A stretch of DNA of 54,758 bases, filler included, from Sluysia triapertura (GCA_046118255.1; 4 parts of 4 records of this genome joined end to end with filler, not necessarily neighbours in it); one strand, 5' to 3'; numbered from the whole stretch's first letter, positions 6,267-54,758 are shown. Made by a program: numbers and translations. The notes: generated from the letters alone by a model not told the origin.

Positions 6267-6749
6267 ATTTATTTTTAGAAATTTAAGGGTTCTTTAATTA
6301 ATTCATATGTTATGATTAAATTTGCTGATGTAATGAATTAATTTTATTTCTTTATTTCCACAATGTAGCATTACACGGACTAACGAAACATTGGGGTAGA
6401 CGAATTTATAAAATTATTTATTTAAAATTTCATAAACATCCCACAATTCATAAAGAATACAATCTCAAATCTCAACCATTGTTAATCACATTGCCGTGGT
6501 GGACCAACCGATAAAGTTTGAATTTTTAGCTCAAAAATTCTCTAAAATTACCATAAATAAATATACATCATCTTATCAAATATAAAATACAGTACAATTA
6601 ACCTTACTATACACAATACACAATTATTAAAATGTATTCCATAAGTTATGCAATAAATAATTGAAAGTACATCAGTAAAACTAAAAGAAATAGTTTGAAC
6701 AAAAGAAATGCAGGCTGTTTTTTGTTTATCTTTTACCAGCTTATTTCAT

Positions 6750-7020
6750 TATTTGGTTTTTGTCAAGCTGCTGCTAAATCAGTTCTAGAAATAAATGGGT
6801 TTGTACACACTGATAAAACTTTGTACCTTGATAAAGCATTAAATAAAGCAGAAAGGCAAAAAGAATTAAAAGTGAAACGAATGGCACAATATAAGAGTGG
6901 CTTGAATGAGTGCATTAAAAATTTGAGAAGTGACATAAAAATCGGCTTCGGCATTAATTTCAAATGTATGGAAACATTGAATGCAAAGTTGAAAATGATG
7001 GAAAGATCTGAAGAGTAGAA
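6750..7020 (+). pseudogene. PABPC1: Decayed fragment of cytoplasmic poly(A)-binding protein (RRM3 end, linker, RRM4 start)
   Basis: FGFC..AAAKSVLEINGFVHTDKTLYLDKALNKAERQKELK-VKRMAQYKSGLNECIKNL aligns by eye to PABP AQKAVDEMNG...IYVGRAQKKVERQTELKRK...RYQGVNLYVKNL. Intronless, with deletions and a degraded RNP2. Confidence 0.7.
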
Positions 7021-9834
7021 ACTTGATACTTGCTTTATGCGCATTTGGCACATTCATGTTACACTAAGAATATAATAAGAATATAATGATAATAATAATT
7101 GTTATAATTATAATAATTAATAATAATTTAATAAAAATCAAAATGGCCTTCTGTCTCAATGATAAATGCACGAGAATTAATATTGGCTATCAAGCTAATT
7201 ACATATACATCCTTTTCAGCTACGTCGATGTGTGGGTAATTGGCTACATTGAATTGCTAAAATAATTAGTTAAAAAATTATAATTAATACATGTAAAACT
7301 ATTAGATATCTTGTGTTGAATATAGTTGAATATATTGCAATTAATAAAATGCAGAAAATACTCCTAAAGAATTAAATGAAAAATTACAAGAAAAATGTTA
7401 TATGCTCCAAGAATAACTGAAAGTTATCAAGCGTCAGAAGTTTGTAAAAATATTGTACATAAATAAGTGTTCAACAAGAGTTTTAATTTGATGTCTCTAC
7501 ACTCATTAAAATTATTAAAATTATTGCAAGTCCTTAGTGACGTTCCTACTTAACAGAAACAAAAATAAACTAGATATTCGTGGAAATTTAATTGAAAAAT
7601 TGTTAGAAATGTTCCAAATATCTAGATGTAAAGGTGTTAAAGTTCAGAATAATTTGAGTAATGTTAGGGAAGGTTTAGTAATTGGTAAACTATCCTGTTC
7701 TTGATTGGTTATTAATTCCAGTTCCAGAACTACGAAGATGTGCTTCTCTAACTCGTATTGATTCAAGTTACACGAATTCCTACATGACCAAATTGCAAAA
7801 TTGTATGATCAGAATGATACATCTTTATACAATTCAAATAATTTTTCATCTTCCCTCAGTAAGAATGTTAAGAAGCTGTACAAGTGTCTTTTTCAAGTGA
7901 CGAATTTTCTGAGACCGGTAACACTAGTGAAGTGACAAATGTTGATGCAATTAAGTGACGAATATCAAAAAAATATTTCAATTCAATGAATTCTCTGATT
8001 CAGTAAAAGATGAAGCAATTTCAATATCAGTCTATCTGGAAAACCAGTTATTCTAGATATGGTAAAATAGTCAAACTATTGCTCTTAGTCGCGCTATGAA
8101 GGTCATTCTTTTCTATTTTTCCTCAATGAAAGCTGGAAGGCATGCATTCGTTTTCTTAGGAAGTTTTATGTGATATTGGTAAATGTTGAATGATTGTTCA
8201 ACAAATCTTTAAGATCAGACTTCGAGTATGCTAACTTTTCGTACAAATGAACGAACATTTAAAGTTAGACGTTTTTATTATTGTGTGATTTGAATTTTTG
8301 ATAAAATTTTTAAATGTCATTTTTTATTTTGGGTCATCTTTGACCCCGGATTAATAATTTCAAAAATAAAACAAAGTTATTCTTAATGAAGTTTTAGTAA
8401 TGGAATTGTTTAATCTGTTTATAAATATTAATTTTAATGTATTTACTTATAAAACTTATATTACAAGTCATAATAAAATTAACAAAATTGTGAGTTTAGG
8501 ATAGATCCTGTTATTAATATAAAATTTATAAATGAAATCAAATATCACTTGGTAAATTCCATCGAAGTAATTACAAAATCAAATCAAGGTTATAACTTGG
8601 CAACGATTTTGCACCTTAAACATAATTATACTCAACATTCATTAATTTCCTTGCAATACCTAATGATAATCTCAAATTCGAGTTTGCATAACATTTAGTT
8701 TAACATTGTGAGGTATCTATTACAATGAATAGTAATCTATGTCACAAGCATTTATCGACTACGATGATACACATAATTAGAATACTTTACTTAATGCAAC
8801 ATATTCGTAATCATTTTATGAGATGTTAATAATTGCTTCGTTTTTTTTCGTTTAGCTTCTTTGTCATGTTCAACAAAAAGTTCGTGTTTCCCTATATATT
8901 ATACAACATCTCATTTTGCCCAGTTCAAGACCGCATAACCTATGAATTTCAAATACATATCATTTTAATACATTAACTATACAAAATTGGAGTCATAAGT
9001 AATCTTGAACATTACAAAACTTACAATTCATAAAACACAAAACAAAACTCTTAATTTCAGTCACATAATCTAATTTATAAATTCACTTCGTATCCATGCT
9101 TTTTTAAATCAAACGACACTATTTCATAAAAGAAAATCTGCACATTACGCTATTCAATTCATTCACCAAGTCCGTAAACAGACACAAATTTGATATATCT
9201 AAATTTCAAACACTAAATCGAAGAAGACTCGATTATGAAACAATGTTATTTGTTATCAATAAATGAATAATTAGTTTATTCTACCTTTATTAGTAAATTT
9301 TCGAATATTTGATATTTTCATTAATTAGTAATTACACTTTTCAACAACACTTTCATATTCGAAGTTCATTCAAAATCTGCAGCAAGGACAATTCATTAAA
9401 ATACATTTCAAATTATTGTGAACTTTAGCTACTGTATTTGGTGATCCAGAACTTTAATTCGCCATTTATAAATATTTACACAAAAAATATTAATTCATAT
9501 TCAATCATTCTGTATTACTGTACTTCCGCATTCCTAATAACTTTCTATGCAATACAAATCTTTATATAAAATATTTATTAAAATTAAATCCTATTAAATA
9601 TAATTATAATTATAATTATAATTATAATAATAATTATTATTATTGTTTAATTTTATTATTATACTTGAATTTTGTTACTTTCTTTACTAAATTTTCTTAT
9701 TTTCATTAATTTTATTATATTTTTAGTTATTCATTATTATATAATTTTTATTTTTCCTTTATTACTCGTAAGTTTCTTTCGTTTATGTATTCACTTATTT
9801 CTATTTCAAACCCTTTCAAAATGTTTCTTTATGC

Positions 9835-10102
9835 ATATCTGATTTCTGATTGAAAAGAGATGTTATTTGATTTCAAAGAATTGATCAGATATGTGGGAAA
9901 AATGAATTATGGGTTTACAATTTAAATAGAATACTCATCGTAAAACCTCTTATTGAGTCTTGTGGGGTTGGCCAGACTGTTTCACAAGTTGACGTTACTT
10001 TTACTCAACGTAATTATAATAATGTTACCGACGCATTAGGCGATTAACAAAGATTAACAAAGACAGTATTTCTACTATTTTATTTAAATCTGCATTGCTA
10101 GA
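9835..10102 (+). mobile_element. Non-LTR (RTE-like) reverse transcriptase relic, cut at 10103 by the TGTGGTGG repeat
   Basis: 10063-10100 encodes DSISTILFKSALL, similar to the QGD.LS..LFN.AL RT motif; heavily decayed upstream. Confidence 0.5.
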
Positions 10103-10950
10103 TGTGGTGGCCAACCTATTGCCTTAACAAATTTTATTAAAAATTTATATTTCATATTTCTCAATAATTCATCTTTTTACATAAGTTTTTGCCAATATAA
10201 CACTCACTCCCAAAATCTACAACTCACATTTTCAAATTCACAACTAACACAAAAATAATTAAAATCGTATTCGTTCAAAACCACACAACAACCGTGTAAA
10301 ATTAGTTACAACCGTTTTTATACCTTAATTCATTTCTCATTCACCAAAATAAACTCTCGCTTGTCAAAACATTTCAAATCTTCAACCTTATAACATTCAA
10401 ACCACAATCACATACAATACCACCAAATTACACTAAGAAATTCATTAAAAATATTTTATTCGTCATTTCAGAACAATCTAACCACACCCACTTTCGAAAT
10501 TAACAATCAGACATCTTCAAACTAATTCAAACATTCTAAATTCATAATCTGCATCTTTTAATTCTCAACAGCACATAAAGACATCACTACTTAAACATAT
10601 CAAGAAAATAAATCACATTTTAAACATTCTATAATCATTGTTGCGTACATTCTAAAATTTAGACTATAATTTATCTTCTTTATATTCACTAAACCACACT
10701 CTTCTAAATGTATCTTTAGGTCACAATCTCCTAACGTTCAAACATTGTCTTCAGTTAGGGGAATTGATCGACATCTAAAAATTCATCTTAAACGTCCTAC
10801 ACATTACGGCTCAACATCATAAACATACAATTCTTCAAGGCTATCCTTTTTTAATAAATTTAAATATGTCGAGAAGTTAAGATGTAAAAGAAAGTTCACA
10901 TTTGTTCTAGGAAACAGAGAATTTATGCGTTTTTGGATAATAATAATAAC
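10103..10950 (+). repeat. Unclassified dispersed repeat (TGTGGTGGCCAACC family), long copy
   Basis: Starts TGTGGTGGCCAACC; the C/A-rich body is homologous to the reverse complement of about 52320-53400 (e.g. ATATCAAGAAAATAAATCACATTTT, AGACTATAA.TTATCTTCTTTA) and shares its distal part (AATATGTCGAGAA...AAAAGAAA) with 24690-25340; ends in a short (TAA)n. Confidence 0.85.
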
Positions 10951-11222: not shown

Positions 11223-11458
11223 TCAAGAATTACTAAACATCAATTGTGCTTGTATGTAAAGTTAAAATATGACAGCATACTCAATTATTGATACGTATTA
11301 GAAAAATCCAAATAAATCAACCTATTATATTTACATTAATGTCGCTAAATCAATACTAAAGAATAATTTTAAAAAACATTTCATCGATTTATTGTTCTAA
11401 AGTAACTAAAACAATATATTAGTTTATTAATATAGTCTAACAATACTGAAACTTATTT

Positions 11459-11968
11459 ATGCTGTCTGCTAAATCTAAACGCTATGAAAGGTTTGACGCT
11501 GGAAGTGAATTAATAAACGACACTGATTTTATTAAGGATTACAAAGATAAAGATTATAAACATTTTGATGATGAGTACCAAGTTAACGAGTATAAAGATG
11601 ATGACTACGAACTTAACGGTAACAAAGCTGATAATTACAAAGCTAACAATAATAAAGTTGGTGATTATGAAGCTAACAATGATGAAGATGATGATTGTGA
11701 AACCAATAATAACGAAGATGATGATTGTAAAGTTGATAGTGACAGAGATGATGTTTATGAAGTTGACGATAATAAAGACGATGATTCCCAAGTTTACAAT
11801 TGTAAAGGTGACGACTACGAACTTAACGATTATAAAAATAACGATTACGAAGCTATCGATAAAAAAGATGATTATTACGAAGTTAACGGTAGCAAAGATT
11901 ATGATTACGAAGCTAACATGATTGCCTTTTGTCCATTCGCCACGGATAAATATGGCATATGTCTATAG
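11459..11968 (+). CDS. Asp/Asn-rich ORF built on a 30-bp (10-aa) tandem repeat, followed by a Cys-containing tail; possibly a pseudogene
   Basis: About 11-12 units resembling DDYEVNNNKD at 11570-11920. After TAG 11966-11968 the frame continues NGSHCCYANTVYG, and a GT..AG intron-like stretch lies at about 12137-12189. Confidence 0.45.
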   Translation: MLSAKSKRYERFDAGSELINDTDFIKDYKDKDYKHFDDEYQVNEYKDDDYELNGNKADNYKANNNKVGDYEANNDEDDDCETNNNEDDDCKVDSDRDDVYEVDDNKDDDSQVYNCKGDDYELNDYKNNDYEAIDKKDDYYEVNGSKDYDYEANMIAFCPFATDKYGICL

Positions 11969-12348: not shown

Positions 12349-12448
12349 NNNNNNNNNNNNNNNNNNNNNNNNNNNNNNNNNNNNNNNNNNNNTTAATTAA
12401 TTAANNNNNNNNNNNNNNNNNNNNNNNNNNNNNNNNNNNNNNNNNNNN
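12349..12448. other. Artificial scaffold spacer N44-TTAATTAATTAA-N44
   Basis: Exactly 100 nt, stops in all six frames, identical at 29299 and 43408. Confidence 0.97.
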
Positions 12449-14629
12449 TACTATATATTATATAGTGTATATATATAGTATATATATTGCATCTTAGTAC
12501 ATTAATTTATTTTATTACCTTAATAAATGTTATTTGGATTTGTAAACATGAATACCGGTAGTAGCAGAAGGGATGTTAATGTAAATTCAGTTAAACGTCA
12601 ACGTACTATATCAGATGAAGGCCGTGAATTTAATGATGAATGGACGAGAAAGTATTTATTCATACAGTTCAACAAGAAGCCTCTGTGTTTAGTTTGCAGA
12701 GGTAACATAGCAGTTTTGAAGGAATACAACTTAAAGAGGCATTACGAAACAAAACATGAGGCTGATTATTCAAAATATGAGGACAAACTGCGCGATGATA
12801 AAATTCAAGAATTGAAATTAATGTTAACCAAGCAGCAAACTCTTTTCTACAAAGTCAATAAAGAATCGGAAGCAGCAGTAAGGGCTAGTTATGTAATCGC
12901 CGAAGAGATTGCCAAGAAAAAAAACCGTTCGTTGATGGTGAATTTATAAAACATTGTATGATGCGTGCCGCTGAAATTGTGTGTCCAGATAAGAAGCAGT
13001 GTTTTTCTAATATTAGCTTGTCGCGTAATACTGTTGCTGAACGAATTACAGAATTATCTGACAATATACGCTTGCAGTTAACTGAGAAGGCAAAGAGTTT
13101 CATCGCATATTCTTTTGCTGTCGATGAAAGTACAGACATGACTGACATTTCACAAGTGGCTGTATTTATTAGAGGAGTCGATAAGGATCTAAATATAACA
13201 GAAGAGTTGGCGGCATTATTACCGTTGAGTGGAACAACAAAAGGAAGAGATGTTATGACGGAAATTGAAAAACTTATGGCAACATTTGAACTGGATTATC
13301 ATCGAATGAAAGGTCTGACAACTGACGGTGCACCGGCGATGTGTAGTAGAAATGTTGGCCTTCAAGGACTTATACAGAAAACTCGTTCCGAGAAAGGAAT
13401 TGAAGGATTCTTTCTTCATTCTCATTGCATTATACACCAGGAAGCTCTCTGTGGGCATGTAGTGCAGCTTGATCATGTAATGAAGGTGGTTGTAAAAATC
13501 ATAAATTACATTCGCGCGCATGCACTTAATCATCGCCAGTTCAAACAATTTTTGGATGACATTGATGCTGAGTGTGGTGATGTGCTGTATTATTCTGAAG
13601 TTCGATGGCTAAGTAGAGGAAACGTTCTCAAACGATTCTTTGAAATACGACAGGAAATTGCAATGTTTATGGCTCACAAAGGCAATGAAATTGCAGAAAT
13701 TTCTGATCCAGCTTGGATAGCAGATCTAGCATTTCTTGTTGACATCACTTATGAATTGAATTTACTGAATGTAAAGCTGCAGGGTCGAGACCAGTTGATC
13801 ACAAATATGTTTGACCACGTACGAGGGTTTGAAACGAAACTGCTGCTGTGGGAGCGACAGGTCAGAAATGGCAATTACTACCATTTCCCGTGCTGCAAAT
13901 CTATTAAAGACACCAACGCAAATGCTGTTATGAATGATGAACTGTATGCTACTAAAATTAAGCTGCTGCATTCAGAATTTCAGCGACGTTTCTCTGACTT
14001 TCGGTCAAATGATTATGTATTCAAATTGTTCTCTGTTCCGTTTTCAGTAAGCATTGATGAAGCACCAGCTGAAATGCAAATGGAACTGATCGACCTGCAA
14101 TGCAACGAAGAATTAAAAACGAAATACAGGCAAGTGTCACTGCAGGAATTTTATAAGTCTCTGCAACCAGATTCCTTTCCAGTTTTGCATAGTCATGCTG
14201 CTACAATGTTATGTCTTTTCGGATCATGTTACCTTTGTGAGCAGGCTTTCTCAGCAATGAAGACAACAAAATCAAAATTAAGATCACGACTTACTTCTGA
14301 ACATTTGGATGCTACTATGAGAGTGGCCTTGTCGCAACAAATTCAGCCAAATATATCCATGATTGTGGCAAGCAAGCAGTGTCAGAAGTCTCACAAACTC
14401 AAATAGTACTAGAAACGTGTGATTTAACACAACAGTGAATAAAAGCATAACCAGCTAGTGTTATTTTAGTATTGTAGCATGGTTTTGTAGGAAGAAATAA
14501 ATATTTGCTGTTGTAGTTGTACATCTTTTTCTCAGTTTGATAAATTTACTTGACTTTTGCCATAGCGGCCCTCCGTTAGATTTCCGTTGTATCAAGTGGC
14601 CCGTAAAGCAAAAAGGTTTGACACCACTG
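12449..14629 (+). mobile_element. Near-intact hAT DNA transposon, Buster group (GTF2IRD2/EPM2AIP1/SPIN-like transposase); 5' end lost at the scaffold edge
   Basis: 3' TIR AAAAGGTTTGACACCACTG ends at 14629, with subterminal GCGGCCC/GTGGCCC motifs. The following 8-mer CTATAGTC has the central TA typical of Buster target sites. Confidence 0.93.
12527..14406 (+). CDS. hAT transposase split by one frameshift in an A8 run (about 12917-12924)
   Basis: BED-like CLVC...LKRHYETKH; catalytic AVDEST, TTDGAPAM and YLCEQAFS; CIIH; VRWLS; C-terminal KSKLRSRL dimerisation motif. Adding one A restores KKKKPFVDGEFIKHCMMRAAE. Confidence 0.92.
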
Positions 14630-15349
14630 CTATAGTCTAAATAACATTCAATAACAAAAATTCAATTTTTTTTATTCTGATTCCTCACTAAATTTTGTTT
14701 ATTCTAATTTCTTTATAACAGCATAATTTTAATCCAATTGACTTTAGTGGTTCAATTAACAAGATTCTACAAAAAAATAAAATTGTTAATACAAATTTAT
14801 AGAATTTATTATCAAGATGTTGAAAGCAATATCCAGAAAGTTTAAAATAGCAATGATGCTAAAATATTTCAAAAATAAATTGGCTAGATGGTCTCCCACA
14901 AAATTATCTTACAATTAGCTAAAAATGGAATTATTAACTTACAGTATTTTGAAAACAAATCCTTCCAAAAAACGAATTTATGAATATCTTAGAATATTTT
15001 AGAAACTTCATTTTGTTTATTTTTTAATTTTCTTTTCTTTTTAATATACATTTTTTAGTGTATAATGTGAATGTTATTAGCATGGTCTATATGCATATTG
15101 CAAACAATGTGGGATTTTATCTACATGATGTGGTTTTCCGATAAATATCGAAGACCAAGTAGATATCGAACTTATGACGTAAAAACATTTTCTTCGAATT
15201 AAATTTTAATTCCCAATACTCATAATTTTGTAATTGATATTTTTGTTACTTTCCATTATTAATTGCTGCATATAAGTTTCTATATTCCTCATCTTCCTCA
15301 ATATTTATTGACTTAACTGTACCGATTGAAGTTAGAATTGTTAGTATTA

Positions 15350-17500
15350 ATAATGATGTTCAGAATGTTTTTTAGCCCTGTAGTTACTTTTACCAGAGTA
15401 AGTGAACATTACGGTCTCAACAGAACCAATTCCTGATAACGATGATTCTGAAAATCCAATTGTTACTGATATTATTGATTCAGTGGATGACTCTTTCCAT
15501 AGTAAATCATATAATCGACCAGGTGGCGGTTCAGGTGTTAGAATATGGATCGGAGTAATATAATTATGAAAGATGGAACAACAACCTGCGGCCTTAATAA
15601 TGGTGCACCGCATGGAAATTTTATAAGACCGTATAACTATATCATCAAATTTGTCGAGTATATCTAAACCAATTATTAAATCGAAAGGGGATTCTCCCCA
15701 GACTTAAATATATTCATTTACTTGTTTGTCTAATATATCTAAATGCGCATGTATTATTTCGTTCATATTTATTGGTGTTCGTTGAACATTATAAATTATC
15801 GTTTGTGGTGGATCTATAAGTACAACTTCCCATGTAGTTAAAAAATCATAATGTATTACAGTCGTGGTAGCTTCTGTGTCTTTTATGGTTCGGATCCATC
15901 TACCATTAAATCGTACATTTTGAAAGATGTGTTCGTATGCCGGTTGATACGTTAAAGATCATTGTTACTTGTTTATCAACTAATGATTGTATAGTTGGTG
16001 GTTTATCACGGTCTTTAATTTTCAGTTTAGCCTTTATTAATGTTTTAGTAACTGTTCTATTTCTTAACCTATATTCATTGTTTGGTGCTATTTTACACCT
16101 GTTTACTTGAACTACAAATGTTTCTGAATCTGAATTAGTGGTATCTTTTACAAATAAATTAGTATCAGTAATTTTTATTACTTCGTATGGTCATTTGAAT
16201 GGTTTATATAGTTTTGGCGATTGTCCAGGTTTTGCCAGTATGGATATTTGATAGGTACTTTGTCACAGATTTGAAAGTTGTGTTTTTTAAGCTTTTTTAT
16301 CATAAGTATCTTTGTGTGCTTCTTGTGAACACTTTATTTGCAATCCAGCACGCTTCCATGCATCCTGTAATCTTTCGTACATTACTCTCATATACTCTGG
16401 TGTTTCTATGTATTGTGACATTGGTGGTATCCATTCTAAATCTACAGTCATATTAGAGTGCCGTCTGTACATCAAGTAAAAAGGTGTGAAATTCGTAGCT
16501 GGGTGTACAGAACTTCTATAAGCAAATAAACATGGTGCAATGTATAAATCCCAGTCGGATTGTCTGTCATTAATATAGGATTGTAACATATTTATCAGTG
16601 TCCGATTAAATCATTCGACTAATCTATCCGGCTGTGGATGATACGGTGAAGTATAAATTCTAAGGATGTTAAATATTTTTGCTACTGATTTAATTACATC
16701 ACTGGTAAAGTTTGTTCCTTGATCACCCAATAATTTCCTTGGTTTACCATACCTATACATTATTTTTTCTACAAGTATTTGTGCTACTGTTTCGCATTTT
16801 TGATTTGGCATTGGATATGCCTCAGGTTATTTAGTCAAATAATCAGGCCATTAATAGTTTTCGGAAATGGACCATTATGTCCATTGCTGTGAACTCCATT
16901 GGTGATAATGGTACAGGCATAGGTTTTAATGGTACTTTTGTCCCGCATTTTTTCTGGAACAATTTTTACACCAATTTGTGATATCATCTTCCATATCTTC
17001 CCAATAATATTTATCTTTTATTCTAGATAGTGTTTTTCTTTAGAGAGATGACCGCCTAATTGTCCGTCGTAAAATTGTATTAATATTGGTCTTACTAGTG
17101 ATTTATGGACATCTTTCGAATTTCTAAATCTGAGTATTCCGTCAGTAATAGCTAATCTTTTCGCTTTAATTTCAGTTAACGTTCCCTTTGCTAACGAATC
17201 TATAATGTACGGGGTATCCTTATTTTCTCTTTGGTGTTTAATGATTTCTTTGGTATCTTGTACTTTTCCTGTATATTATTTGTATAAAATTAATATTTCC
17301 TTTATCATCTACATTAGTTAAGCGTGACAGAGTGTCCGCACCATTGTTTTGAGAACCTGGTTTATAGATGACTTCTAAATTAAATTCTGCTAATTTATTA
17401 AACCATCTGTTTAATCGGCTGACCTCATCTCTATGATTATACAGATATGTCAGCGGTTTATGGTCGGTGTATAAATAAATTTTCTGTCCCAATATCAATA
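15350..17500 (-). mobile_element. Decayed Ty3/Gypsy pol fragment: RNase H, integrase (HHCC, DDE, GPY/F), then a retropepsin-like domain
   Basis: LYTDHKPL...RLNRW..KLAEFNLEVIYKPG..N.GADTLSR (RNase H); GGH..K...YYW.DM..DI..WCKNC; GDQGTNF and TSPYHPQ...VE (rve core); WDLYI...LFAYRSSVHPATNFTPFYLMY; FK*PYEV. Many stops and frameshifts; RT and LTRs not seen. Confidence 0.92.
15640..15945 (-). pseudogene. Retropepsin-like aspartic protease domain located 3' of the integrase
   Basis: IFQNVRFNGRWIRTIKDTEATTTVIH (DTGA-like) ... PFDLIIGLDILDKF (ILGxD motif); one internal stop. Confidence 0.7.
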
Positions 17501-19452
17501 ATTTTTTATATATATTAAAATTAAATTATTAAATATTTTGGAATGATTCCATCAAAATATTTGTTGTTGTGTTGCTATTTAAATATTATTTTTAATAATT
17601 TGGCAATTTTTATTTTAGCATTTAATATATGTAATTTTAGGGAATTCTCCTTTAATTTTTGTATTAATTAGTTAAGTAAATTTTGTAGGAATTTTTCTTT
17701 GATTTAGCATTGATAAATTAAGTTTTTATTTATTCGTTGAATAATAATATATGTAAAATATTTAGATCAAAATAAAAAGAAAGACAGATATGAAAGAACC
17801 CTCCACTGCATCTTTCTCGCAAAAATATAAAAATACATTTATTAATTTATTTATATAAAATTGTTTGGTTTCACAATTTTGTGTTAATTATCTGTACATG
17901 AAAAAATAACGTGAGCTAAATTATAATGTTGAAATTCATCAGTATTATTAGTCGACGCAGATTATGTATAAATTATTTATTTATTAAATTCATGTAAATA
18001 AATAATTTTATGTATATTGAAATATTCAAACATTAATGCTCATTAAGATACCAAATGGAACAGATTATTGAAATCGACGTTTAATGTACTGTTAATGCAT
18101 GCCTATTATGTTAAATTCTTATGTTTGAGAGATATTATTTGATCCTAATAATTTGCCATAAATGTCAGTTATTTTTTAGTTTGTATACTTTTAATTAAGT
18201 ACCTAGAAAAATGGTTCCCAAGGTGCCAAAACTATTAAATCATTGAGCTCGCTTTACTCAGTAACATCTGTAATGCATGTTTGGCTGCTCACTAAAGAAC
18301 CAAAAGTTTTATGGTTCAGAAAACAAAATTATTTAAAACCATTCAGTACTAAACATTCACATAATCAAAACTATTAGATACAAATCAATTGCAATTTGAA
18401 ACATTTCACATTCTTGCAACTTTTCACTTTCAATATTAAATAGCTTTCAATACATTTAATATCATGTACACTTCTGTAATCTATAATAAAACTCCAACAA
18501 TCACATCTTTAGAAAATTCTGCACCTTGACATAACATATTAAATTAATTCTTGAAGATAAGGTATTGCGACACATCCAACATATTCAAAAATAGAAAGAA
18601 CTTTGTTTCCATCTTAAATATCCTTTTGTCTTTTTTAATAACTTTTATGATAATAATGAGTGCATTAGTTATTTCTTCATAATAAATGTAGAATTATTAA
18701 TTTGTAGAGGAAAAGTCTTATTTGCCTTTATAATTTTTTACTTATTTTGTGGACAGATCACTCTTCTTTTCAGTTAAGCCATAAAATTTTTGCCTTAATT
18801 ATAAGTAATAACAAAAGTAAGGTTATTGTAAAATTATTCATGGATAAAATGAAATTGGTTATAGGAATTGAAATAAATTCTTACCTTGTTCGATTAAACG
18901 GTATTACGGTTGAATATGCTTTGGCCATTCTTAAAAGCAATTCAATTTTTTAATGTATTGTGGTAGCCGAGCCCACACCTATCTACATATCACATAAATC
19001 ATCTACACAAACCTCAACACAAAAATTACACCATAACAAATTTTACACATATCAGTCACAACATTAGAACACTCATCATTGTAAAATCACAAATGTCTAG
19101 TAAAATTTCTTTTATTAACATTGTTAAAATATTAAACTCAGTGTTTAGTACCATTTTTATTATTATGACGCACTATCTTTTTTCTAGTGTCTCCCGATCT
19201 TTTTTGTGATTTAGTGCTTGGGTGCATATTAGAGAAGTATTAATCGCTTTTAACTTTATATTAATGCATTTATGGTCTTATTTTGTTTAAAGGCATAAAA
19301 ATTTGCATAAAAATGAAGCAACACCTCAAAACAGAAGCATTACAGTCAAAAACAAAATGTTAAATATAAATAGTTTAATGTTTACGCATAAATGTAGATT
19401 TTATATTTCATTGCATGATTGTCAGTTGGTAGATTCGTTTAATTTTAATTCT

Positions 19453-19720
19453 ATGCAGAATAAAGAAAAAGTTAAACCGAAAGATGATGTTGAAGACGAT
19501 GATGCTCGGGGAATAGATTTTATTAAAAACATCTAAGCGAATTTTTCATCTTTAAAACCTTTATAAGTCATATATCCTGAAAAGGAAGAAAAAGAATGCA
19601 TGGTTAACTACAACTTGGTTACGCCACCAACTCCATATGACCTCTGTCCACTTTTTGAACCAGGAGTTCTAGCATTAAATTATTTCCGTACATTTATAAA
19701 TTTTTGTATAAAAGGCTTAT
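19453..19720 (+). pseudogene. Unidentified decayed coding fragment
   Basis: Single frame MQNKEKVKPKDDVEDDDARGIDFIKNI*ANFSSLKPL*VIYPEKEEKECMVNYNLVTPPTPYDLCPLFEPGVLALNYFRTF with two in-frame TAA. Confidence 0.35.
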
Positions 19721-21680: not shown

Positions 21681-22079
21681 ATGTAACATTTTAGTAAATC
21701 TGCGATCAATTTATTGAAATATAAAATTTTATCAAAATGAAGAACCTTACGTGAACAGTTAAAATGTAAATAGTAATGTCCAAATGATAAGAAGGTAGTT
21801 GGATATTTATCAAATTTAAAAGCACGATATTTTGCAACAGCTTTTCCTTCTTGGCATTCGTCTTCTAGTAGACCTGGATCGACCAATGATACACCAGCTG
21901 CCTGCCCGATTCTGCCACTACTAACAGCTCCACCCGCTATGTAACCTAGTAAGAAAACTTCTACTTCTGCATTACTGATTCGGAGACGGCGGGAGAAAAG
22001 CGCAAGACTAAACGAACTATAAAGTCTGACCGAGCCAACCGACACGTTAATTCGAATACTTCGCAACAGTTCTTGAACT

Positions 22080-22224
22080 TCTAAATCATCTCTACTAACA
22101 ACGCATCTAAAATAAGTTATAAGTTGAACATAATCTTTCATCATTTCATCTAAATCATCTCTACTAACAACGCATCTAAAATAAGTTATAAGTTGAACAT
22201 AATCTTTCATCATTTCATCTAAAT
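22080..22224. repeat. Exact 69-bp tandem duplication (2 copies plus 7-nt TCTAAAT microhomology)
   Basis: Units start at 22080 and 22149; gives the repeated peptide LDEMMKDYVQLITYFRCVVSRDD. Confidence 0.95.
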
Positions 22225-22746
22225 GAATACCACTAGCTTCAAAATCTTTATGCAACAATAACAATACTCTTTTATCTACTTCATGTAATGAAAGCACGTC
22301 TTTTTCAGTTTTAAATACTTGATCGATTAATGAAAACAAGTCTTTATTTGTATTAAAAATTTCAACTATATGAGACATTGACTGGCTGACATTAGCAAAT
22401 CGTTCTCTACTATTTTTATTTGGATGCAATAATCTCATACACTCTGCTAAATCAGCAACTTGGCATATGCAATCAGATATGTCATGTAAAACTTCAACTA
22501 TTCTACGTTGACGAATGGATGACAATGCTTCTTTTAACAAAATATGACAATCACTCTCTGCTTTGTACTTCATCATATCAACCCCTGTAACTTTTTCATT
22601 GACAAATTCTCCATTACCATTCATATAGTCATTTGAATTAAAAGCTGTTAGCAGTGAACTGAAATGTCTTAAACTGATGTTTAAATACCTTGCTTTCGTA
22701 CTGAACACGTCATGAAAATAGAAAAATCGTCTCTAAGAACTAACAT
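22214..22746 (-). pseudogene. MIPEP: 5' fragment of mitochondrial intermediate peptidase (M3 family), intronless and truncated
   Basis: IVEVLHDISDCICQVADLAECMRLLHP...IVEIFNTNKDLF...DKRVLLLLHKDFEASGIHLDE matches the MIPEP N-terminus (DELSDSLCRVADLA..., KLNTN, DFEISGIHLD). ATG 22746 is frameshifted from the transit-peptide-like RRFFYFHDVFSTKARYL. No HEXXH region. Confidence 0.88.
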
Positions 22747-22839: not shown

Positions 22840-23100
22840 TACGATAATAATAATAATGATGATAAAAATTAATTAATAAAATTAATTATAAAAATAATAA
22901 AATTAATAATAATAAAATAATAAAGTAATAATAAAAATAATAATAAAAATTTATAAAATAAAATTAATAATAAAGATAATAAAATATAATTACTAAAATA
23001 AATTAATAAGAAATAAAATTAATAAAAATAGTAATAATAATAAAAAATAATAATAAAATAAAATTAATAATAGAATAATAATAAAAATAAAAAATGAAAT
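22840..23100. repeat. A/AAT-rich low-complexity tract separating the NCAPD2 and MIPEP fragments
   Basis: Direct inspection. Confidence 0.85.
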
Positions 23101-23104
23101 ATCT

Positions 23105-23715
23105 ACTGTAGCATTTCGCGTGGATTGATTTTTGCTATGCTCTGGATTTTCTAACAATTTATATCAACAATTGGATAATAGATTTATAAAATCTATCTCC
23201 ACAACTGGAGGTGACCACAATTTTTCTATAGGGGATTTAGTTAACTGACTAAGTCCATTAACAGCATCAGTAACATCACGATGCCAATCAGTATTATTAG
23301 TTGAACCAACTTTCTTTTTGCGTCCTTTTCCTCTATCCATAATAACATTATTATGTTGAATTTCTCCTTCATATAATTCCACAAATTTATAAATTAGGTA
23401 AACATTCATTTTTACACAACAACGATATCTAAATTGTCTTTCATCATTATTTTCTAACCCAACTACTTTAGCAGCCCATTGTTGAATATTTTGTAATAAT
23501 AAATCCCAGATTTTTATTCTTATTTTAGGTTCTACACGAGACCAATGATATAAAACTCCATAAAAATAATCAAAATATTTCATAATACCCTCTGGTCCTA
23601 ATTCTAATAACTTGGAAAAAAACAACATCGACATGTGAGGATATGTCATTGACATCAATTATATTTTTTACAGCATACTGATTACTAGATGTTGATGTAC
23701 AGTAAAAATACAATA
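23105..23715 (-). pseudogene. NCAPD2: 5' fragment of condensin I subunit 1 (Cnd1/CAP-D2), intronless and disabled
   Basis: SSNQYAVKNI...(frameshift in T-run near 23620)...GPEGIMKYFDYFYGVL...KMNVY...GKGRKKK...LWSPPVVEIDFINLLSNC*YKLLENP..KNQSTR matches CAP-D2 (NQYVV, GP..M..HFD..YS.L, EEFVSL..CCY.LLENP). Premature TGA, then truncation. Confidence 0.88.
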
Positions 23716-23774
23716 AAAGGTAGTGCCTTAGTGATGATGAAATGGCAACAAACGTTACATTTAACAAAGTATTA

Positions 23775-23917
23775 CTAAAATGATTTTAATAAGGAGATTT
23801 TATTATACGTTTGTGATTTATCGGAAATGAAGTGTGATTTTTTTTTGTGATGAGTTTTATGTAGTCGATGGTGATAGTGAATGTGATGTATGATATATGT
23901 TGAAGTGTGACACCACA
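23775..23917 (-). repeat. TGTGGTG-terminus repeat, short copy
   Basis: Minus-strand start TGTGGTGTCACAC at 23917, followed by a C/A-rich body. Confidence 0.6.
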
Positions 23918-24689
23918 TCTTATTTCAAATTCTAACAACAAATCGTCAAAATATGAAGTATATTTGACAAAATTACAATCAACATACGATTCTTTTTAAC
24001 TTTACAAGCGGGAAAATGAACTAAATCACAATTTTTAGTTGTTTTGTCCGAATTGCGAGTTTTAATTTAAATGCCTTAAATGCTATCCCACATCTGTGTG
24101 ATAGATTTATTTCGATCTTCAAGTTTTAAATTTAATTCATTTAAATATCGGTTAGAAGAGTTAAATCCTGTATCAAATTTTTATCCTTAAATTGTTCAAC
24201 TGAATGATCTTTCATTTCTAAGAATGTTTTGATTTCACTGAGAAGTTCCCAGAACCGCACCAAAATTTTGTGGCAAGAAAGCCAACATACTTTTGTATAA
24301 TAATTTAAGCCATCATGTTTATTTTCAATTTATGACAGTAAAGATGAAACTGTCGTTGATTCAAACCTCGAGATCGTATAAAATTTATATTTTTTGACAA
24401 ATTGAAGAACGTTTTTCATTTTTATTACTTTGGAACAAAGTATCTCCTCATGGATGATGCAATGAACATGGTGAAATTGGTTATCGGGAGAAATATCGTG
24501 TTGTTCAGCTAATAATTTAGCTATAAATCCATTTTTTCTTCCTGTCATTGTTTTCGCACCATCTGTGGCTACACATACTTAAAAGCTAGTCGACGGATTC
24601 AAAAATGCCTTCATCTGTAGTGGTGTTTTTAAGAGATAAAATTCAAGGAATTATTCAGTCACAGTAAAATCTTTGTCACAAGCACGAAT
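23918..24689 (-). mobile_element. Decayed internal fragment of a second GTF2IRD2-like hAT transposase
   Basis: ATDGAKTMTGRKNGF...HCIIHEEILCSK...(V)CWLSCHKIL.RFWEL...DLVHFPACK...LLLEFEIR; bounded on both sides by TGTGGTG repeat termini. Confidence 0.88.
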
Positions 24690-25345
24690 TGTGGTGGCCA
24701 ACCTTATAGCTTTAATAAAACATACTAAAATCTCATAAATCTACAAAAATAAAATTTTACTTCTCAAAACGCCTTAAGTCTGTAAATTCATAATAAAGAA
24801 CACCACCAACTCATAGCAAGAAATCCATCAAGAACACTTATCCAACACCTTACAACATCCAAATCACAATAAAGCTTTAAACCATCAAAACACATTAAAT
24901 TTTAATTCAGATATTTTATTTTACATCTTTTCATCCCAAACAACTTAATTACGTCAACATTCACAACCAAACGCCATCATTACTCACTCTAACGTCTACC
25001 TTATTCCAGGTTTTCATTCCAAAACTATCTATACATTAATATTATTTCAGCCAGAATTTCAGAAACAATCATACAAAAGAATGTAAAATCACAAAGGAAA
25101 ACAATATCGCGTTAAATTCACAAAACCGAAAGTTTTCTGCATTTCTTCAACCCAGATATGTTAAGTAACATAAAGCAAAGCAAAGAAAGATTGTGTATAA
25201 CATCTAAAAGCAATAAAATTATGCATTTTCTTTTCTTGGGAATATTTTCGAAACAATATTTAAATAAGCTTTTATTTCATTAAATTTAATATGTCGAGAA
25301 AAGAGTAAAGATAAAAGAAAAGATCATGTTCATTTCTAGATACTA
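24690..25345 (+). repeat. TGTGGTGGCCAACC-family repeat, long copy
   Basis: Exact 14-mer at 24690-24703; distal similarity to 10850-10915. Confidence 0.8.
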
Positions 25346-25619
25346 AAGTTTATATCAAAAACACTCAACTCTGGCTCCAACAAGTTCCTTAAATCACCAA
25401 TGGTTAAATTTGCTGGCACATTATGGGTAGATTTTCCTCTAAAATTTTTTCGCATTCTACTAATAGTTTTTGGGAATTCTTGAAATGTTTTAATTATATA
25501 AACAATGATGATACTAAAAATAATTAAAATAATAAAAAATAATTAAAGTAATAATAATTATAAAAGTAATAAAAATAATAAAAATTATAATAATAAAAAT
25601 AAAAATAATAATAATAATA

Positions 25620-25861
25620 ATAAAATAAAAAAGATGATAAAGGTGACATTGAGAATGATGATATTGATGGTGTGGATGGTAATCAGAGGGGAAGGAACTG
25701 TGATGTTGATACAAATGATTTTAGTGTGAGGTTTGGAGTTTGGAGAGCATGATTTATAAGTTTATGTTAATGTGGGAAAGTAACAGCGAAGTGAATAGGT
25801 TAAATATGAAATTTTATAAATTTTTGAGGGTGACGAAATTATGAAGATAGGAGTGACACCA
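25620..25861 (-). repeat. TGTGGTG-family repeat, divergent inverted copy
   Basis: G/T-rich plus strand ending GGAGTGACACCA. Confidence 0.5.
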
Positions 25862-25899
25862 AGGACCGTAACAGGCTAACTCAAAATACAAAGAAAAAA

Positions 25900-29095: not shown

Positions 29096-29298
29096 TTTAT
29101 TTTACATATTATAAGTATTATATTATATTATATTATATTTGTAGTGGTCAACATTAATAACTTAAATTTAAATCCAACAATTATAAATCTAATCTCATTA
29201 AAATATAATTTTCTCAACAACCATACTTTTATTTTACAATTACATCACTATAAACATCATAAAACAACATTCTACAATCACAACACCTCACTAACTTA

Positions 29299-36096: not shown

Positions 36097-36148
<52 letters not shown>

Positions 36149-41749: not shown

Positions 41750-42372
41750 TATTAAAGAGTAAAAACGTTGTCGATAAAATCTTTATATTCTGCACGGCTC
41801 TATTAAAATAATCATTACCATTTCGGCGCATTTGATGAACATAATTGGTACGATTCGGATATTTCAATGTTGCTTGTTCCTTCTGCAAGTTTTTCATGCA
41901 CCAACCTCATGCGGATGTAAATATACTATAGCATGTATAATTATGATATAGAAAATAACATAAATAAAGCGGATGAAAATATAACCATGACTATATTATA
42001 TGACTAACTATTATGTGGAGGTATTCTAAGTTTCAGAATGGCATATGGTTTGCAGGAATCTTTGGTGCACCTCCTTGTCCCAAATTATTATTTATAATGG
42101 TTTTAGTTTTTCGTTTAAATTTTATTTGCTCTTCCATTTCTTATATCAGAGACGAGTTAGACGGGTCTGTTTAAATAATTAAATGATAATAAACTTAAGA
42201 TTTATAAATTTGTCTAAAGTTTAATAATAGTTTTAAAGAATACACCTAATCTAAATTTATTCGATTTATTCTTGACTTTTCTTCTGGATTTGAATTTTGT
42301 GTCTTCTTTGATCTTCTTTTTTTGAATTGTCTTTTTTGCTTGACAATTATTATTACTGTTAGACTTCGAAAA

Positions 42373-42444
42373 TGGACTGACCGGGGATCGAACCCGGGAC
42401 CTCTAGCTGCGCAATTTGAGGCTCTACCACTGAGCTATCAGCCC
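42373..42444 (-). repeat. tRNA-like module (tRNA pseudogene or SINE head)
   Basis: GGGCTGA TA GCTC AGTGGTA GAGC CTCAAATTGCGCAGCTAG AGGTC CCGGG TTCGATC CCCGG TCAGTCC A: acceptor, D and T arms pair, the anticodon stem does not. Confidence 0.85.
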
Positions 42445-43407: not shown

Positions 43408-43507
43408 NNNNNNNNNNNNNNNNNNNNNNNNNNNNNNNNNNNNNNNNNNNNTTAATTAATTAANNNNNNNNNNNNNNNNNNNNNNNNNNNNNNNNNNNNN
43501 NNNNNNN
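43408..43507. other. Artificial scaffold spacer N44-TTAATTAATTAA-N44
   Basis: Same as 12349. Confidence 0.97.
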
Positions 43508-45469: not shown

Positions 45470-46605
<1,136 letters not shown>

Positions 46606-47596: not shown

Positions 47597-48190
47597 TCAT
47601 GAAGTATCTTTAAATTCTAATTTTTTAATCTCTAAACCATTATCAATCCATTCCTGAAAACCACCAGAGTAAACTCGAGCCTTTTTATAAACAATACTAT
47701 GTGCTAATTCGCATTCACTTCTACCTTTAACTTCTTTCAAACTATAAAATATCAAATTATCATTTGAATAATCTGGTTTATGACGTTGGTAAGTAGCTAA
47801 AAATTCTTCTTTGGACATTTAAAGTGCTGTCTTAAGCTTGTTAAATGGTATATGAATGTCAACCGGAATAATACCAGTTTTTTCTATATCAGCTCTATCT
47901 CTCACATGAACCAACATTAGAGATTCTGATTTTAGCACCTCTTGAACAAAATTCATATTAACTTCATTCCGTTTCGTAACTTGAGATTGTTATCTCCTGG
48001 ACGAATTTCAACTGGTTTAGGAGCACCTTTAACTGCATTTGAATATAGTCTGTTAATAGGATGAATGAATGAAGGATTTGCAATATTACGATAACTAAAA
48101 CGCGATGACGGAATAAACCAGTAAAACGTTCTGCTTAAGGAACATCTAGATATAAATGGTTTAGCAACGTGCCTCAGAAGCGTTAAAGAA
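47597..48190 (-). pseudogene. Intronless single-domain rhodanese (TSTD/Hsp67B-like) pseudogene with a transit-peptide-like leader
   Basis: MLVHVRDRADIEKTGIIPVDIHIPFNKLKTAL*MSKEEFLATYQRHKP...LIFYSLKEVKG...ARVYSGGFQEW. Frameshift near 47968, in-frame TAA at 47821-47819, active-site Cys replaced (FYS), no start codon seen. Confidence 0.85.
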
Positions 48191-48309
48191 TATTTAAAAT
48201 CGAACAATAATAATAAAAGTAAGAATAATAATGACAAGAAGATAAGGTGTGAAAGCTTGCACAACGTTGATACAATCGGAGGAGGTGATCACGGCGGACT
48301 CAAAGTAAT

Positions 48310-48498
48310 AGTGGTAAATTATTGTAATTTTATTGTATTATAATTTATTTAAATTAGAGTATATTACATATATTGTATTTTAATAAAATTACTGAAAGAG
48401 ATATTTTATTTTATTTAGGTTATTATATGTTGGTGTAGTATGTGGTGAATGTTTGTGATAGACTGTATAAGGAGTTTATGTATAAGTTGAACACTACA
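48310..48498 (-). repeat. TGTGGTG-family repeat, short copy
   Basis: Minus-strand start TGTAGTGTTCAAC at 48498, then a C/A-rich body. Confidence 0.55.
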
Positions 48499-48839: not shown

Positions 48840-48886
<47 letters not shown>

Positions 48887-50185
48887 TTTAATCGTAGCAA
48901 TAGTCTTATTGTAAATATTCTCAACTGAATGTACACCTGACATCCATAAAATCATAATCCATGTTAATTAATAAATTGTTTTCTGAAAGAAAATTACATT
49001 GTAATGTGCATGTAAATTTAGTAATTAATTAAGATGACAGAATTCATCTATTTGGATTAAACTACGAACATTTTTATACGTAAACCATTTTTATATAAAA
49101 TACAAGAAAAACATTTTTTAACTAATCACAAATTAGGAAAACAGGCTATAATAATAATAATAATTCTTAAATTTCATATCATAACTAAAATATTAATGGT
49201 GAAAATTAACAATGAAATTGTAAATAAAACAATATTTAATATATAATAAATAATAATATTATTTAATAAAAATAATAATAATAAATAAATAAGAATAATA
49301 AATAATAAATAAACCATAAATAATACAGAAAAACAATCAAATACTCAATTTTCTTTAAATAAAACTTAAACAATCCGTAATTCAGTAGTTATACTTTCAA
49401 ATAAAATAATTATACCTAAGTATTTGTCAAGCAATGCTGAATTTTACAGCGATAGAATCAAAATGTACAAAAGACACTGCAATCTTTTTAAGAAATAATT
49501 GACATATTAAATGCAAAATAATTGTAAATTCAATAATATTCATGAAAAATATTATTAATATAAAAAACTTAAATTAACATTGACGCAATTTTCTCTATAA
49601 TAATTAAATCTTATCTTGCTTTGGTGCCTTTCTAATTTTTGAAGAAACTAAGTTGATTTTTTGTCCGCATTTAATGCCATTGTTAAATGTGATATAAGCA
49701 GAAGGTAGAGCCTGACCTTACAAACCAAACGTCATCAAAATTTTCAATCTTAGATGTAGTATGCAAAATCAGGATTATATAATAATGAAATTGGAAAGTT
49801 TTAAGATGTTAAATATGAAGAGAATTTTGTTAATTGCGTTGTGGGTTAAGATTTTCTTATAGACTGATTTAATAATAAAATCAGACGTAATGTATTGGAT
49901 CACTACACCATCTTTTGTATTATATTATATTTTAAAATATATAACGAAAGTATTTAGAGTTAATCTTAATATTAAAATTTCATTATTGTTATTATTGTAA
50001 CACAACCTGTTCTTAATTGTAATATCAATTAATTCATTTTACTATAATTCAACATTTTAGTCAATGATATTTTTATATCGTTATTATTGTTTTCAAAACA
50101 TAATTTCGAACTCTCTTGCTAATATTATATTGTAGAATTGTATAACGTTGCTTTTAATCATTGAATTATATGTTTATTATTATTA

Positions 50186-50238
<53 letters not shown>

Positions 50239-52314: not shown

Positions 52315-53405
52315 TTATTATTATAACTACATAAATTCTTAAAAATCTTGAAAATTAACACGAGCTTTCTTTCTATTCTTTAATTTCTTGACATTTTTAA
52401 ATCTAATTCCTTAAAATACTTAAAATGAAATTGTTTTAAGATGTCTGCAAGTTAAATGTCGGGATGTGATGAGCGTACGTATTTGCGATGAAATTCTACA
52501 ATGTGGTTGTGATTCTAGTGTTGTAAGACGATACGTAAAACGTTTTAAATGTACTTTTAAATACCAATTAATGTTTTTGGCTGAATATTAGTTCAAGCGT
52601 TGAAAGTCTATGATTTAAATATTTTAAAATAATATGAATGTTTAAATGGATTATAAATGTACATTGATGTTTTGAATGAAATAATGCTTAGATGTTAATA
52701 GATTGTGGGTTACAAATATGTTAAAAGGATGTAAAGAAGATAAGTTATAGTCTAGCTTTTGGTATGTTCAAAAGGTGATTGTATAAAGTTGAAAATGTGA
52801 TTTATTTTCTTGATATTTTAAGTAATATTGTCTTTCTGTGATGTTAGGGATTGAATGATAAAAATCATGAATTTGGAATATTTGAATTGATTTGAAGGTG
52901 TGCTAGATGTGGTTGTAATTGAATTGTTATGAAATGAAGAATAAAATATTTTAGATGAATTTTTTAATGTAAATTGATGGTTTTAAATATGATTGTGGTT
53001 TAGTTGTCATGAGTTTGTAGATTTAAAATGATTTGATATATATAAATTGATTTTGAAAGAATAAAAGAATAAAATATAGAAGAGGTTTTGACAAATTCTA
53101 AAAGTTGTCGTGCGATGTTGAAAAGGACATGACTTTAGTCATGTTAGTATTGAACTGTGAATTTAAAAATGTGAGATGTAGGTTTTGAGGGTGAGTGTAA
53201 TATTCAAACATATGATTTTGATTATATTGACATGGAACTATGTATACAATGTTTTTAATGAATTTTAAAATGTATATTGTACATTTTGAAAGTGAATGTG
53301 ATTTTGTAATGTTTTAAAGAAAATGTTTAAATGAAATTTGTTAAAAGTGTGAGAAAGGTAAGTGAAGTAAATAGAATAAAACTTAACTTAAAGTGAGTTC
53401 ACCAA
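52315..53405 (-). repeat. TGTGGTGG-family repeat, long inverted copy
   Basis: Reverse complement aligns by eye to 10200-10950; degenerate terminus at about 53405; (TAA)n at the distal end. Confidence 0.8.
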
Positions 53406-54602
53406 CGTACTGGACTTCCCAGTTAAGGCCAACCCTTGGATTTTATAAATCAAGATAATGTGTTAATAGGACCTTAATGCTCAATTCCATCTACAGGTAA
53501 AATTTATTAATGTCTATTGTTAAGATCCTCTAGTAATTGTCTAGTTTAAGTTTTCTTATCAAAGATGTAAGTAGATTTGAAGGTATCTAGAAAGCTTTAA
53601 TTATAAGTAGAATTAAAATTTATTTAGAAATTTTACTTAGATTCCGTTATGTGGAATCGTTATAACAGATTTTACTTGCTAGAATTAAATTCTTGCTTCT
53701 AGAAGGCAACGGTAATTAAGTTTTAACAAAATTTAAAACTATACAATTTAATTGAATAAGTAATTATAATTATCAAAATTATACAAAAGATTAAAAAAGC
53801 TATAAGAATTATCAATAATAATAATAATAAATCACAAAACTATCTTAGTTAGTTAACTAATAAAATAATTTTAAAAATATATTTTTCCAAGGATCCAATA
53901 TATGATCCAAATGAATTAAATGAATTTAAATGGATTTTACTTGTGATATTTTAGAAAATATCGATCTTATTGTAATTAAACTGAATTAACTGAATTAAAA
54001 TGAATTAAATTAAATTAAAATAAATTCTCAATTTAAATATTAAGTATCCAAAATTCAAAATTATAATTAATAATAAAATATTATATAAATCAAAAATCAA
54101 TAGTTATTTACATTTTGAAATCAAAATTGTGTCACAAAATCAATTATAATTGTGTGTCATAAAAAATCAATTAGTTATTTACATTATAGTTGTTTACAAA
54201 AGTAATAGGTTGATCACCACACGGCGATGAAATTTCATGAATGGGAGGTGGTAGACAATAATAATACATAAATGACAGAATATATATTTTTTCAAATACT
54301 TACAAAGATAATAATGTTAGTTAGTTAGATACAATAAAATGTTTTTAATAGATTTTAGTTACCCTTTAATAGCGATCTGTTTAAAATTATTAAAAAGATG
54401 TATGTTAAATGTTTGTTTAAAATATACTTTCTTATACTAAACAAAACTAACATTAAAATATTTTATATCGTTATTCTGAAATAGAGTTTGATTCAATTGA
54501 TTTTAATCGAGGAATTAATAGACAATAGATTCCTTGACTGAAATGTATAGCTTAATACAATTTTTTGTATTTGTATTAACTTCTTTGTGACAAATAAAAC
54601 TA

Positions 54603-54758
54603 AGTCGTGGCCAACACTCATAACTTAAAATTAATCAAAATTTTATATTCAATATTCATAAATTAAATTTCACCAAAATTCAATTTTCAAAATAATCACA
54701 CCTTTTTACTATCGAACTACACCAACACAAACATCATAAAATAACATTCGATATTTAT
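54603..54758 (+). repeat. TGTGGTGG-family repeat start, running off the window
   Basis: AGTCGTGGCCAACAC followed by a C/A-rich body. Confidence 0.65.

Follow-up and report, generated by a model that had tools for sequence, protein, structure and literature searches.

Co-oriented host-gene fragments behind a shared repeat terminus in a 55-kb window of the flatworm Sluysia triapertura: possible chimeric retrocopies

Background

Why would one short repeat end stand time and again in front of disabled fragments of host genes? This question is raised by a stretch of 54,758 nucleotides from Sluysia triapertura (GCA_046118255.1), made up of four parts of four records joined end to end with filler and further referred to as the window (26% GC, eight N gaps), to which all motif and flank scans were confined. 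A preliminary description of this DNA had proposed that variants of a terminus of 13-15 nt, most of them followed by a C/A-skewed non-coding body (here called the leader), belong to a single non-autonomous element that captures or joins gene fragments. The present analysis suggests another origin. The units may be chimeric retrocopies formed by template switching, in which the reverse transcriptase (RT) of a long terminal repeat (LTR)-type retroelement would have passed between RNA of the repeats and spliced mRNAs of the host, a tentative reading to which a rough probability of 0.45 is given.

A spliced gene fragment behind a high-copy leader

The evidence that carries this reading lies behind the terminus at 23917(-), where a leader of about 200 nt (23701..23917, minus strand) is followed by a fragment of NCAPD2 (23105..23700, minus strand; Cnd1_N, E 1.1e-15) that lacks its own start and contains one frameshift and one stop codon. 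Contigs of one public sequencing run, which may be the source of the assembly itself, were compared with positions 23110-25480, covering 2,371 of the 54,758 bases and two of the 12 termini. One contig (depth 27.8) contained a 31-nt insert relative to the window, at 23182/23183, bounded by GT and AG on the coding strand, similar in size to the 36-nt intron of the RPL18A gene of this window, and absent from the NCAPD2 piece of the window. Another contig started exactly at 23183 and matched over 240 nt with two differences. Since the contig has a GT-AG intron where the window has none, the NCAPD2 piece passed through spliced RNA: it is a recent copy of a spliced RNA, about 99% like a parent that has an intron here, or a duplicate of such a copy. 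The lost intron speaks against the DNA-capture models listed in the preliminary description (Pack-MULE and Helitron) and suggests a process that is already known; for the same reason, direct capture of DNA and capture by intron-retaining Penelope elements are not first choices for this unit.

The leader and the gene fragment differed widely in contig depth. Summed contig depth, which by the warning of the tool is not a copy number, amounted to 11,090-33,322 on the 23917 leader versus 87-110 on the NCAPD2 piece, with single contigs at depths of 22-28. In its best bin the leader exceeded the single-copy level about 370-fold to 1,500-fold, depending on whether that level is taken as 90 or as 22-28. 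With a depth far above that of the adjoining NCAPD2 piece, this leader is therefore a high-copy repeat. The 24690 leader is high-copy too (summed depth 2,077-6,056 over 24710-25189 and 854-934 over 25190-25349), and a hAT piece situated between the two leaders had a summed depth of 1,557-4,304. The inner edge of the 23917 leader was placed between 23701 and 23724 by contig depth, so that the unit is about 200 nt long and NCAPD2 comes directly after it. A contig join from 23917 to 24802 was not used, as it rests on 27 low-complexity letters.

Two firmly identified host pieces adjoin leaders, namely the NCAPD2 fragment and a rhodanese-domain gene copy (47597..48198, minus strand; Rhodanese, E 7.5e-7), which is apparently full-length and disabled by a frameshift and a stop codon. 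They lie 217 and about 300 nt downstream of a terminus, respectively, on the same strand. When three weak pieces are included, the distance from terminus to adjoining piece is 217-393 nt in all five cases, always downstream and on one strand with the terminus, and the nearest terminus of opposite strand is at least 780 nt away. A random point has such a neighbour in 4.7% of cases, given a distance limit of 450 nt chosen in retrospect; the corresponding probability for the two firm cases is about 0.002. The three weak pieces add little, because they were found by looking downstream of termini.

Behind NCAPD2, the chain of host pieces continues in the same orientation. After a degenerate (TTA)n tract (22844..23101, minus strand) comes the 5' part of an M3 peptidase gene (22217..22745, minus strand; 54% to P0121), with 125 protein matches (best E 3e-41) to relatives that carry Peptidase_M3, although a word-index protein search of the piece gave nothing; the gene is probably MIPEP. 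In frame after it follows a CSN2-like piece (21890..22220, minus strand; E 1.2e-4 to COP9 subunit 2), confirmed by search and absent from the earlier list of fragments. Both the NCAPD2 and the peptidase pieces are 3'-truncated and without poly(A), and the peptidase and rhodanese pieces appear to start with their native 5' ends, which a (TTA)n run precedes. As side observations, the peptidase piece (22217-22672, minus strand) is short of about 12 codons compared with its two closest relatives, possibly by a skipped small exon or a deletion; the CSN2-like piece consists of two distant CSN2 parts joined, looks more GC-rich than its neighbours, and contains an exact tandem duplication of 69 nt that may be an assembly slip.

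NCAPD2, the MIPEP-like peptidase and rhodanese had all been named before and were recovered, whereas the PABP fragment, the ubiquitin-like scrap and the open reading frame (ORF) rich in D and N found no confirmation. The possible PABP fragment (6764..7018, plus strand) had PABP3 as its top PDB match at E 1.1, and further searches, a word-index protein search among them, found nothing. The ubiquitin-like scrap is a short decayed ORF (25340..25470, minus strand) with no relevant match. The D/N-rich ORF (11450..11968, plus strand) consists of 30-nt repeats and matched no family; its tie to the 10103 leader is putative. Another decayed ORF (19351..19587, plus strand) gave a weak lead to inositol oxygenase (E 0.86) that was lost on trimming, with no Pfam match. 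A Pfam read-through of the downstream and flanking regions examined returned no family.

A shared terminus on unrelated leaders

The terminus itself was confirmed at all 11 sites given for it, those at 25861 and 53405 being best read from 25863 and 53406, and a twelfth, overlooked before, is present at 49907(-). Two copies, at 10103 and 24690, are exact 14-mers. Up to three mismatches to the consensus of the preliminary description, which was picked after the fact, were found in seven matches (six of the 11 sites, plus a terminal inverted repeat (TIR) of a hAT element at 14628), whereas 40 Markov simulations at the same threshold averaged 0.7 matches and never exceeded 3; the remaining five sites match only with gaps or with more than three mismatches. 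A looser 7-nt pattern had 21 matches, five of them followed by a C skew of at least 0.6 (background 1.9%, P 4e-5) and 16 without it. When composition is taken as the starting point, nine of the 11 tracts with the strongest C skew begin at the motif, as does one of the ten weaker ones. A TGTRG start is found at seven of the 12 sites, with decayed variants at the other five. The skewed body reported behind the terminus is there at 11 of the 12 sites (0-5.5% G just downstream, versus 13.3% in the window), but not at 54221, where the sequence scan and the downstream composition revealed a terminus (54190..54221, minus strand) with no C skew. The motif was also considered as a primer-binding site (PBS) and rejected as such, three copies having TAG rather than TGG and a CAAC-like tail being present in all, whatever the middle.

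What the leaders have in common is the first 13 nt or so and a G-poor, C/A-rich composition. Because their bodies split into several (at least three) unrelated groups that share little else, the units are not one element. The joining of host pieces to repeats thus holds locally, with two firm co-oriented pieces and two high-copy leaders, but not as the product of a single capture element. Three long copies had been described as mutually homologous, which is true of the leaders at 10103..10865 (plus strand) and 52390..53406 (minus strand; 74% over 494 nt) and only weakly so of that at 24690..25360 (plus strand; 69% over 108 nt, E 4e-6; z-score 1.2-1.6 against local shuffles). All three end at a common ATG, and the region around it is shared by 24690 as well. 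A second group consists of the leaders at 29140..29298 (plus strand, cut by an assembly gap) and 54602..54758 (plus strand, cut by the window end), which are co-oriented, 25 kb apart and 69% alike over 146 nt (z 8.2). The short leader at 18959..19180 (plus strand) is weakly related to that at 23917 (z 3.6; 82% over 38 nt). Among the 66 pairs, z-scores of 3.4-4.7 without alignment support were obtained for 25863/49907, 49907/54221, 25863/29140 and 29140/48498, and pairwise comparison over the 12 sites gave no supported likeness for the other bodies. The latter include a G-poor leader behind a terminus variant (6495..6763, plus strand), without detectable homology to other leaders; a leader with a decayed terminus, found by sequence scan and skew and followed by a (TTA)n tract (25640..25863, minus strand); one found by sequence scan and composition and followed by a short (TTA)n run (48200..48498, minus strand); and the short leader of the additional terminus (49750..49907, minus strand), found by the skew scan.

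In the 23917 leader, AATAAA occurs at +113 and is followed by sequence rich in T and GT; at +192 the leader partly matches its own start in inverted orientation. Recycling of a spliced leader was rejected, the leaders being 200-1,000 nt long and unrelated, as was an in-frame fused signal peptide, the hydrophobic frames arising from T-rich DNA and containing stops. Of two metagenome scans, one gave no loci and the other two, both GC-rich chance matches unlike the window.

The terminus had further been said to cut other elements. This applies to a hAT transposase fragment (23918..24689, minus strand; tblastn to residues 89-357 of the hAT ORF of the window), whose matching part (24704-23941) is cut on both sides and has no other part in the window. 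It was not confirmed for a possible RT relic of a long interspersed nuclear element (LINE) ending at the 10103 terminus (9860..10102, plus strand), which was recognised by eye from motif-like text at 10068; Pfam-type searches gave no match, and the motif expected to follow does not occur on that strand before 36276.

Search for a second end

Neither a target-site duplication (TSD) nor a second terminus had been reported before, and the element had been placed in no class; searches at the 12 sites in the window uphold this. TSDs of 6-20 nt were not above chance, the best being one of 11 nt at one of the 12 sites (control fraction 0.04) and the rest having control fractions of at least 0.22. As to a direct-orientation LTR partner, no near-identical same-strand copy occurs downstream of any leader in the window. 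Partial inverted matches at +185 to +212 are present in the 23917, 18959 and 48498 leaders, none of them perfect. Rfam found no hammerhead in the window, and neither of two loose cores lies within a leader. T-rich tracts outweigh A-rich ones after only seven of the 12 termini; (TTA)n tracts follow several units, and no poly(A) was seen. A Gypsy relic at 15300-17525(-) has the same terminus on neither side within the window.

Origin of the units

Under the reading as LTR-type chimeric retrocopies, the end of about 13 nt would be recognised by integrase and shared among several LTR families, and the joins of leader to host piece and of host piece to host piece would be template switches. The second end may have been lost by deletion, or may never have formed if recombination or break repair, instead of clean integration, brought the cDNA in. 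The terminus fits the TGTNR pattern, which is that of Gypsy LTRs and Ginger elements (PMC2836005; this and the other reports are cited for the parts consulted). Integrase specificity resides within the terminal 8-15 bp (PMC3601003), which explains why otherwise unrelated bodies share their end only. Furthermore, LTR-mediated retrocopies are partial, 3'-truncated and without poly(A), and chain several parents (PMC5131818).

Several points weigh against this reading. The model published for LTR-mediated retroposition needs both LTRs (PMC5131818), and no second copy of the 23917 leader occurs downstream in the window, although the NCAPD2 piece looks young. CA followed by a TSD of 4, 5 or 6 nt was found at 3, 0 and 0 of the 12 sites, versus 3.7, 1.4 and 0.5 expected; no leader has a clean inverted CA end, and the likeness between the 18959 and 23917 leaders seems to extend a few bases beyond the candidate end. 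Inspection of flanks and leaders, made without a host tRNA set, disclosed no PBS, polypurine tract (PPT) or common purine tract. Moreover, the intron evidence is limited to a single intron, seen in a single contig of a single run, none of the contigs listed bridges the junction between leader and NCAPD2, and three of the five adjoining host pieces are unconfirmed. As both LTRs are expected and the test for a second one failed, the units can be said to work like LTR-mediated retroposition, not to be members of it.

The main rival is a one-ended non-LTR route, which is unlikely on its own; together, the two RNA routes are probable. The motif would then be the transcription start of a non-coding or 5'-derived retroposon RNA with an internal promoter, as in Sadhu elements, and a LINE RT, having first copied host mRNA, would jump to the leader RNA and continue until the 5' end of that RNA, in the manner of WEIRD or U6-L1 chimeras. 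Such a route accounts for a sharp common 5' end on unrelated bodies without a second end, Sadhu elements having only a 5' motif in common (PMC2848041), and single or double template jumps yield bi- or tripartite chimeras (PMC2104539). The apparent 5' starts of the peptidase and rhodanese pieces after (TTA)n and the common ATG to which the long leaders lead are in line with it as well. However, the TSDs and tails that it predicts were not found, the prevalence of T-rich tracts after only seven termini does not favour it, and the TGTRG start would be a coincidence.

A quite unlikely possibility is that of a one-ended gene-shuffling system, in which many unrelated leader families with a common 13-nt 5' signal are routinely joined to pieces of spliced host mRNA and inserted without a second terminus or TSD.

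It is very unlikely that the termini are DNA transposon ends (Ginger-type TIRs, Pack-TIR or Helitron-like), inserted beside pre-existing retropseudogenes or picking them up. Ginger elements do have TGTNR termini and TIRs of 40-270 bp (PMC2836005), Helitrons can carry retrogenes (PMC4224331), the motif resembles the hAT TIR of the window, and the termini at 18959(+) and 23917(-) face each other with weakly similar leaders. Yet those two leaders are only about 67% alike and would enclose an intact RPL18A gene, and the seven facing terminus pairs of the window have unlike flanks and no CCGG/CCGT or RTATAY target. The lost NCAPD2 intron and the absence of a TC start do not fit either.

Very improbable, too, is a chance adjacency in a region dense in repeats and pseudogenes, or a set of misjoins in a gapped short-read assembly. 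The eight N gaps, the limitation to two firm adjoining pieces and the lack of a listed contig across a leader-gene junction would be compatible with this, but not the position of all five pieces downstream of their termini on the same strand, nor a 336-nt contig that aligns to the local hAT piece with three differences and two gaps. Finally, the motif is most improbably a host core-promoter element at duplicated 5' ends of ordinary genes, as could be read from divergent terminus pairs 772 and about 380 nt apart and from unstructured leaders ending at A-rich ATG contexts, since the leader is more than 100-fold deeper than the gene piece after it, nothing like the motif lies within 3.3 kb upstream of intact RPL18A, and the NCAPD2 piece lacks its own start.

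Other features of the window

The intact RPL18A gene (20049-20615, minus strand; one 36-nt intron) lies between the facing termini at 18959(+) and 23917(-), its best named relatives being those of cestodes and trematodes (63-66%), which points to a flatworm host, probably one that falls outside the parasites with good sampling. A gene-like multi-exon region (about 30772-38100, plus strand) has short introns and sense-strand (TAT)n tracts, without a Pfam match.

Mobile elements are represented by a hAT element (12527-14628). Its transposase has zinc finger and dimerisation domains and is nearly intact, with the frame broken once. The right-hand TIR of the element, at 14628(-), is the one within three mismatches of the terminus motif; its left TIR was not found, an N gap adjoining it. 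The decayed Gypsy relic at 15300-17525(-) comprises an RNase H tail and an integrase, with no RT or LTR seen; after the integrase stands what is presumably an aspartic-protease-like motif, noticed by eye. Two DDE_1 relics of the pogo/Tigger type (31367-32320, plus strand, and 45446-46414, minus strand) are 86% alike, and the first breaks into the gene-like region. A second RT-like relic with a FADD motif (40080-40400, plus strand) was seen by eye, with no Pfam match. Palindromic elements resembling miniature inverted-repeat transposable elements occur at 28-730, 38339-38644 and 41559-41763.

Rfam and ARAGORN yielded a single tRNA-like stretch in the window (42373-42444, minus strand), which has a diverged second copy at 33726-33815(+); both are likely heads of tRNA-derived short interspersed nuclear elements. 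A decayed coiled-coil ORF (1613-2097, minus strand), with no terminus found upstream, could be an exception to the pattern, should it prove to be a host pseudogene. Three gaps of 100 nt (12349-12448, 29299-29398 and 43408-43507) consist of N44, a 12-nt TTAA-type spacer and N44, a scaffolding artefact.

Significance and comparison with known systems

That retroelements capture host genes at the RNA level, and chain them, is known from small sets of two-ended cases. In this flatworm window of 55 kb, several unrelated repeats show capture, one case looks recent, and there is no second end. The literature searched, outside of which fell subscription papers, Repbase reports and supplements, contained no paper on this repeat. 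While the process is known, nothing in that literature, taken without Repbase and Dfam, describes it with one end only, in this number of families or at this local density. Were the pattern to extend over the whole genome, chimeric pseudogenes and rearrangement breakpoints would arise from it in large numbers, and in this group synteny breakpoints show an enrichment of Gypsy and LINE elements (PMC11410931). If full copies turned out to be ordinary LTRs, the units would be a flatworm example of a described process. If the one-ended system were true, the density in the window (12 termini and two to five captures in 55 kb) would imply thousands of chimeras genome-wide, and a route of retroposition outside both LTR and LINE rules.

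Helitrons have a 5' TC start and a hairpin-CTRR end. The termini in the window start with TG instead, and no hairpin-CTRR end was identified. Alike are the absence of TSDs and the chained host fragments, which in Helitron capture may include retrogenes (PMC4224331). Penelope-like elements resemble the units in having pseudo-LTRs (pLTRs), terminal repeats of about 200 bp in direct and inverted orientation, with variable TSDs, and in mobilising host genes (PMC3846280). Genes mobilised in that way keep their introns, whereas here the intron is lost and no leader contains a hammerhead core. Ginger1 and Ginger2 share the TGTNR termini and have terminal repeats of 40-270 bp (PMC2836005). The window differs from them by the absence of a paired TIR, a specific 4-bp TSD and a transposase, and a cargo of spliced host cDNA is not described in the part of that report consulted.

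A short 5' motif on divergent non-coding bodies is found in Sadhu elements (PMC2848041), and an abundant RNA fused 5' of another template in WEIRD/LINE chimeras (PMC2104539). These have poly(A) tails and TSDs of 7-16 bp, unlike the units in this window. The Gypsy-type (Metaviridae) LTRs and solo LTRs (PMC3601003) and the ta-TRIM elements of taeniids (PMC4558846) have a conserved TG end of 7-15 bp, AATAAA and a GT/T-rich stretch in common with the leaders, which lack their clean CA end and TSD of 4-5 nt. In tapeworms, transcripts link solo LTRs to the genes downstream of them; those ta-TRIM fusions come from intact loci (PMC4558846), whereas the chimeras in this window are genomic and intronless.

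The closest parallel to the favoured reading is LTR-mediated retroposition (PMC5131818), in which element sequence stands on both sides of the host piece, with both LTRs, instead of on one side without a second LTR, PBS or PPT. In the window, moreover, the host piece may start about 200 nt behind the TG, and within 55 kb more than one unrelated leader is followed in this way. Common to both are host pieces that are partial, 3'-truncated, intronless and tail-less, chained from several parents and situated beside a TG-ended repeat.

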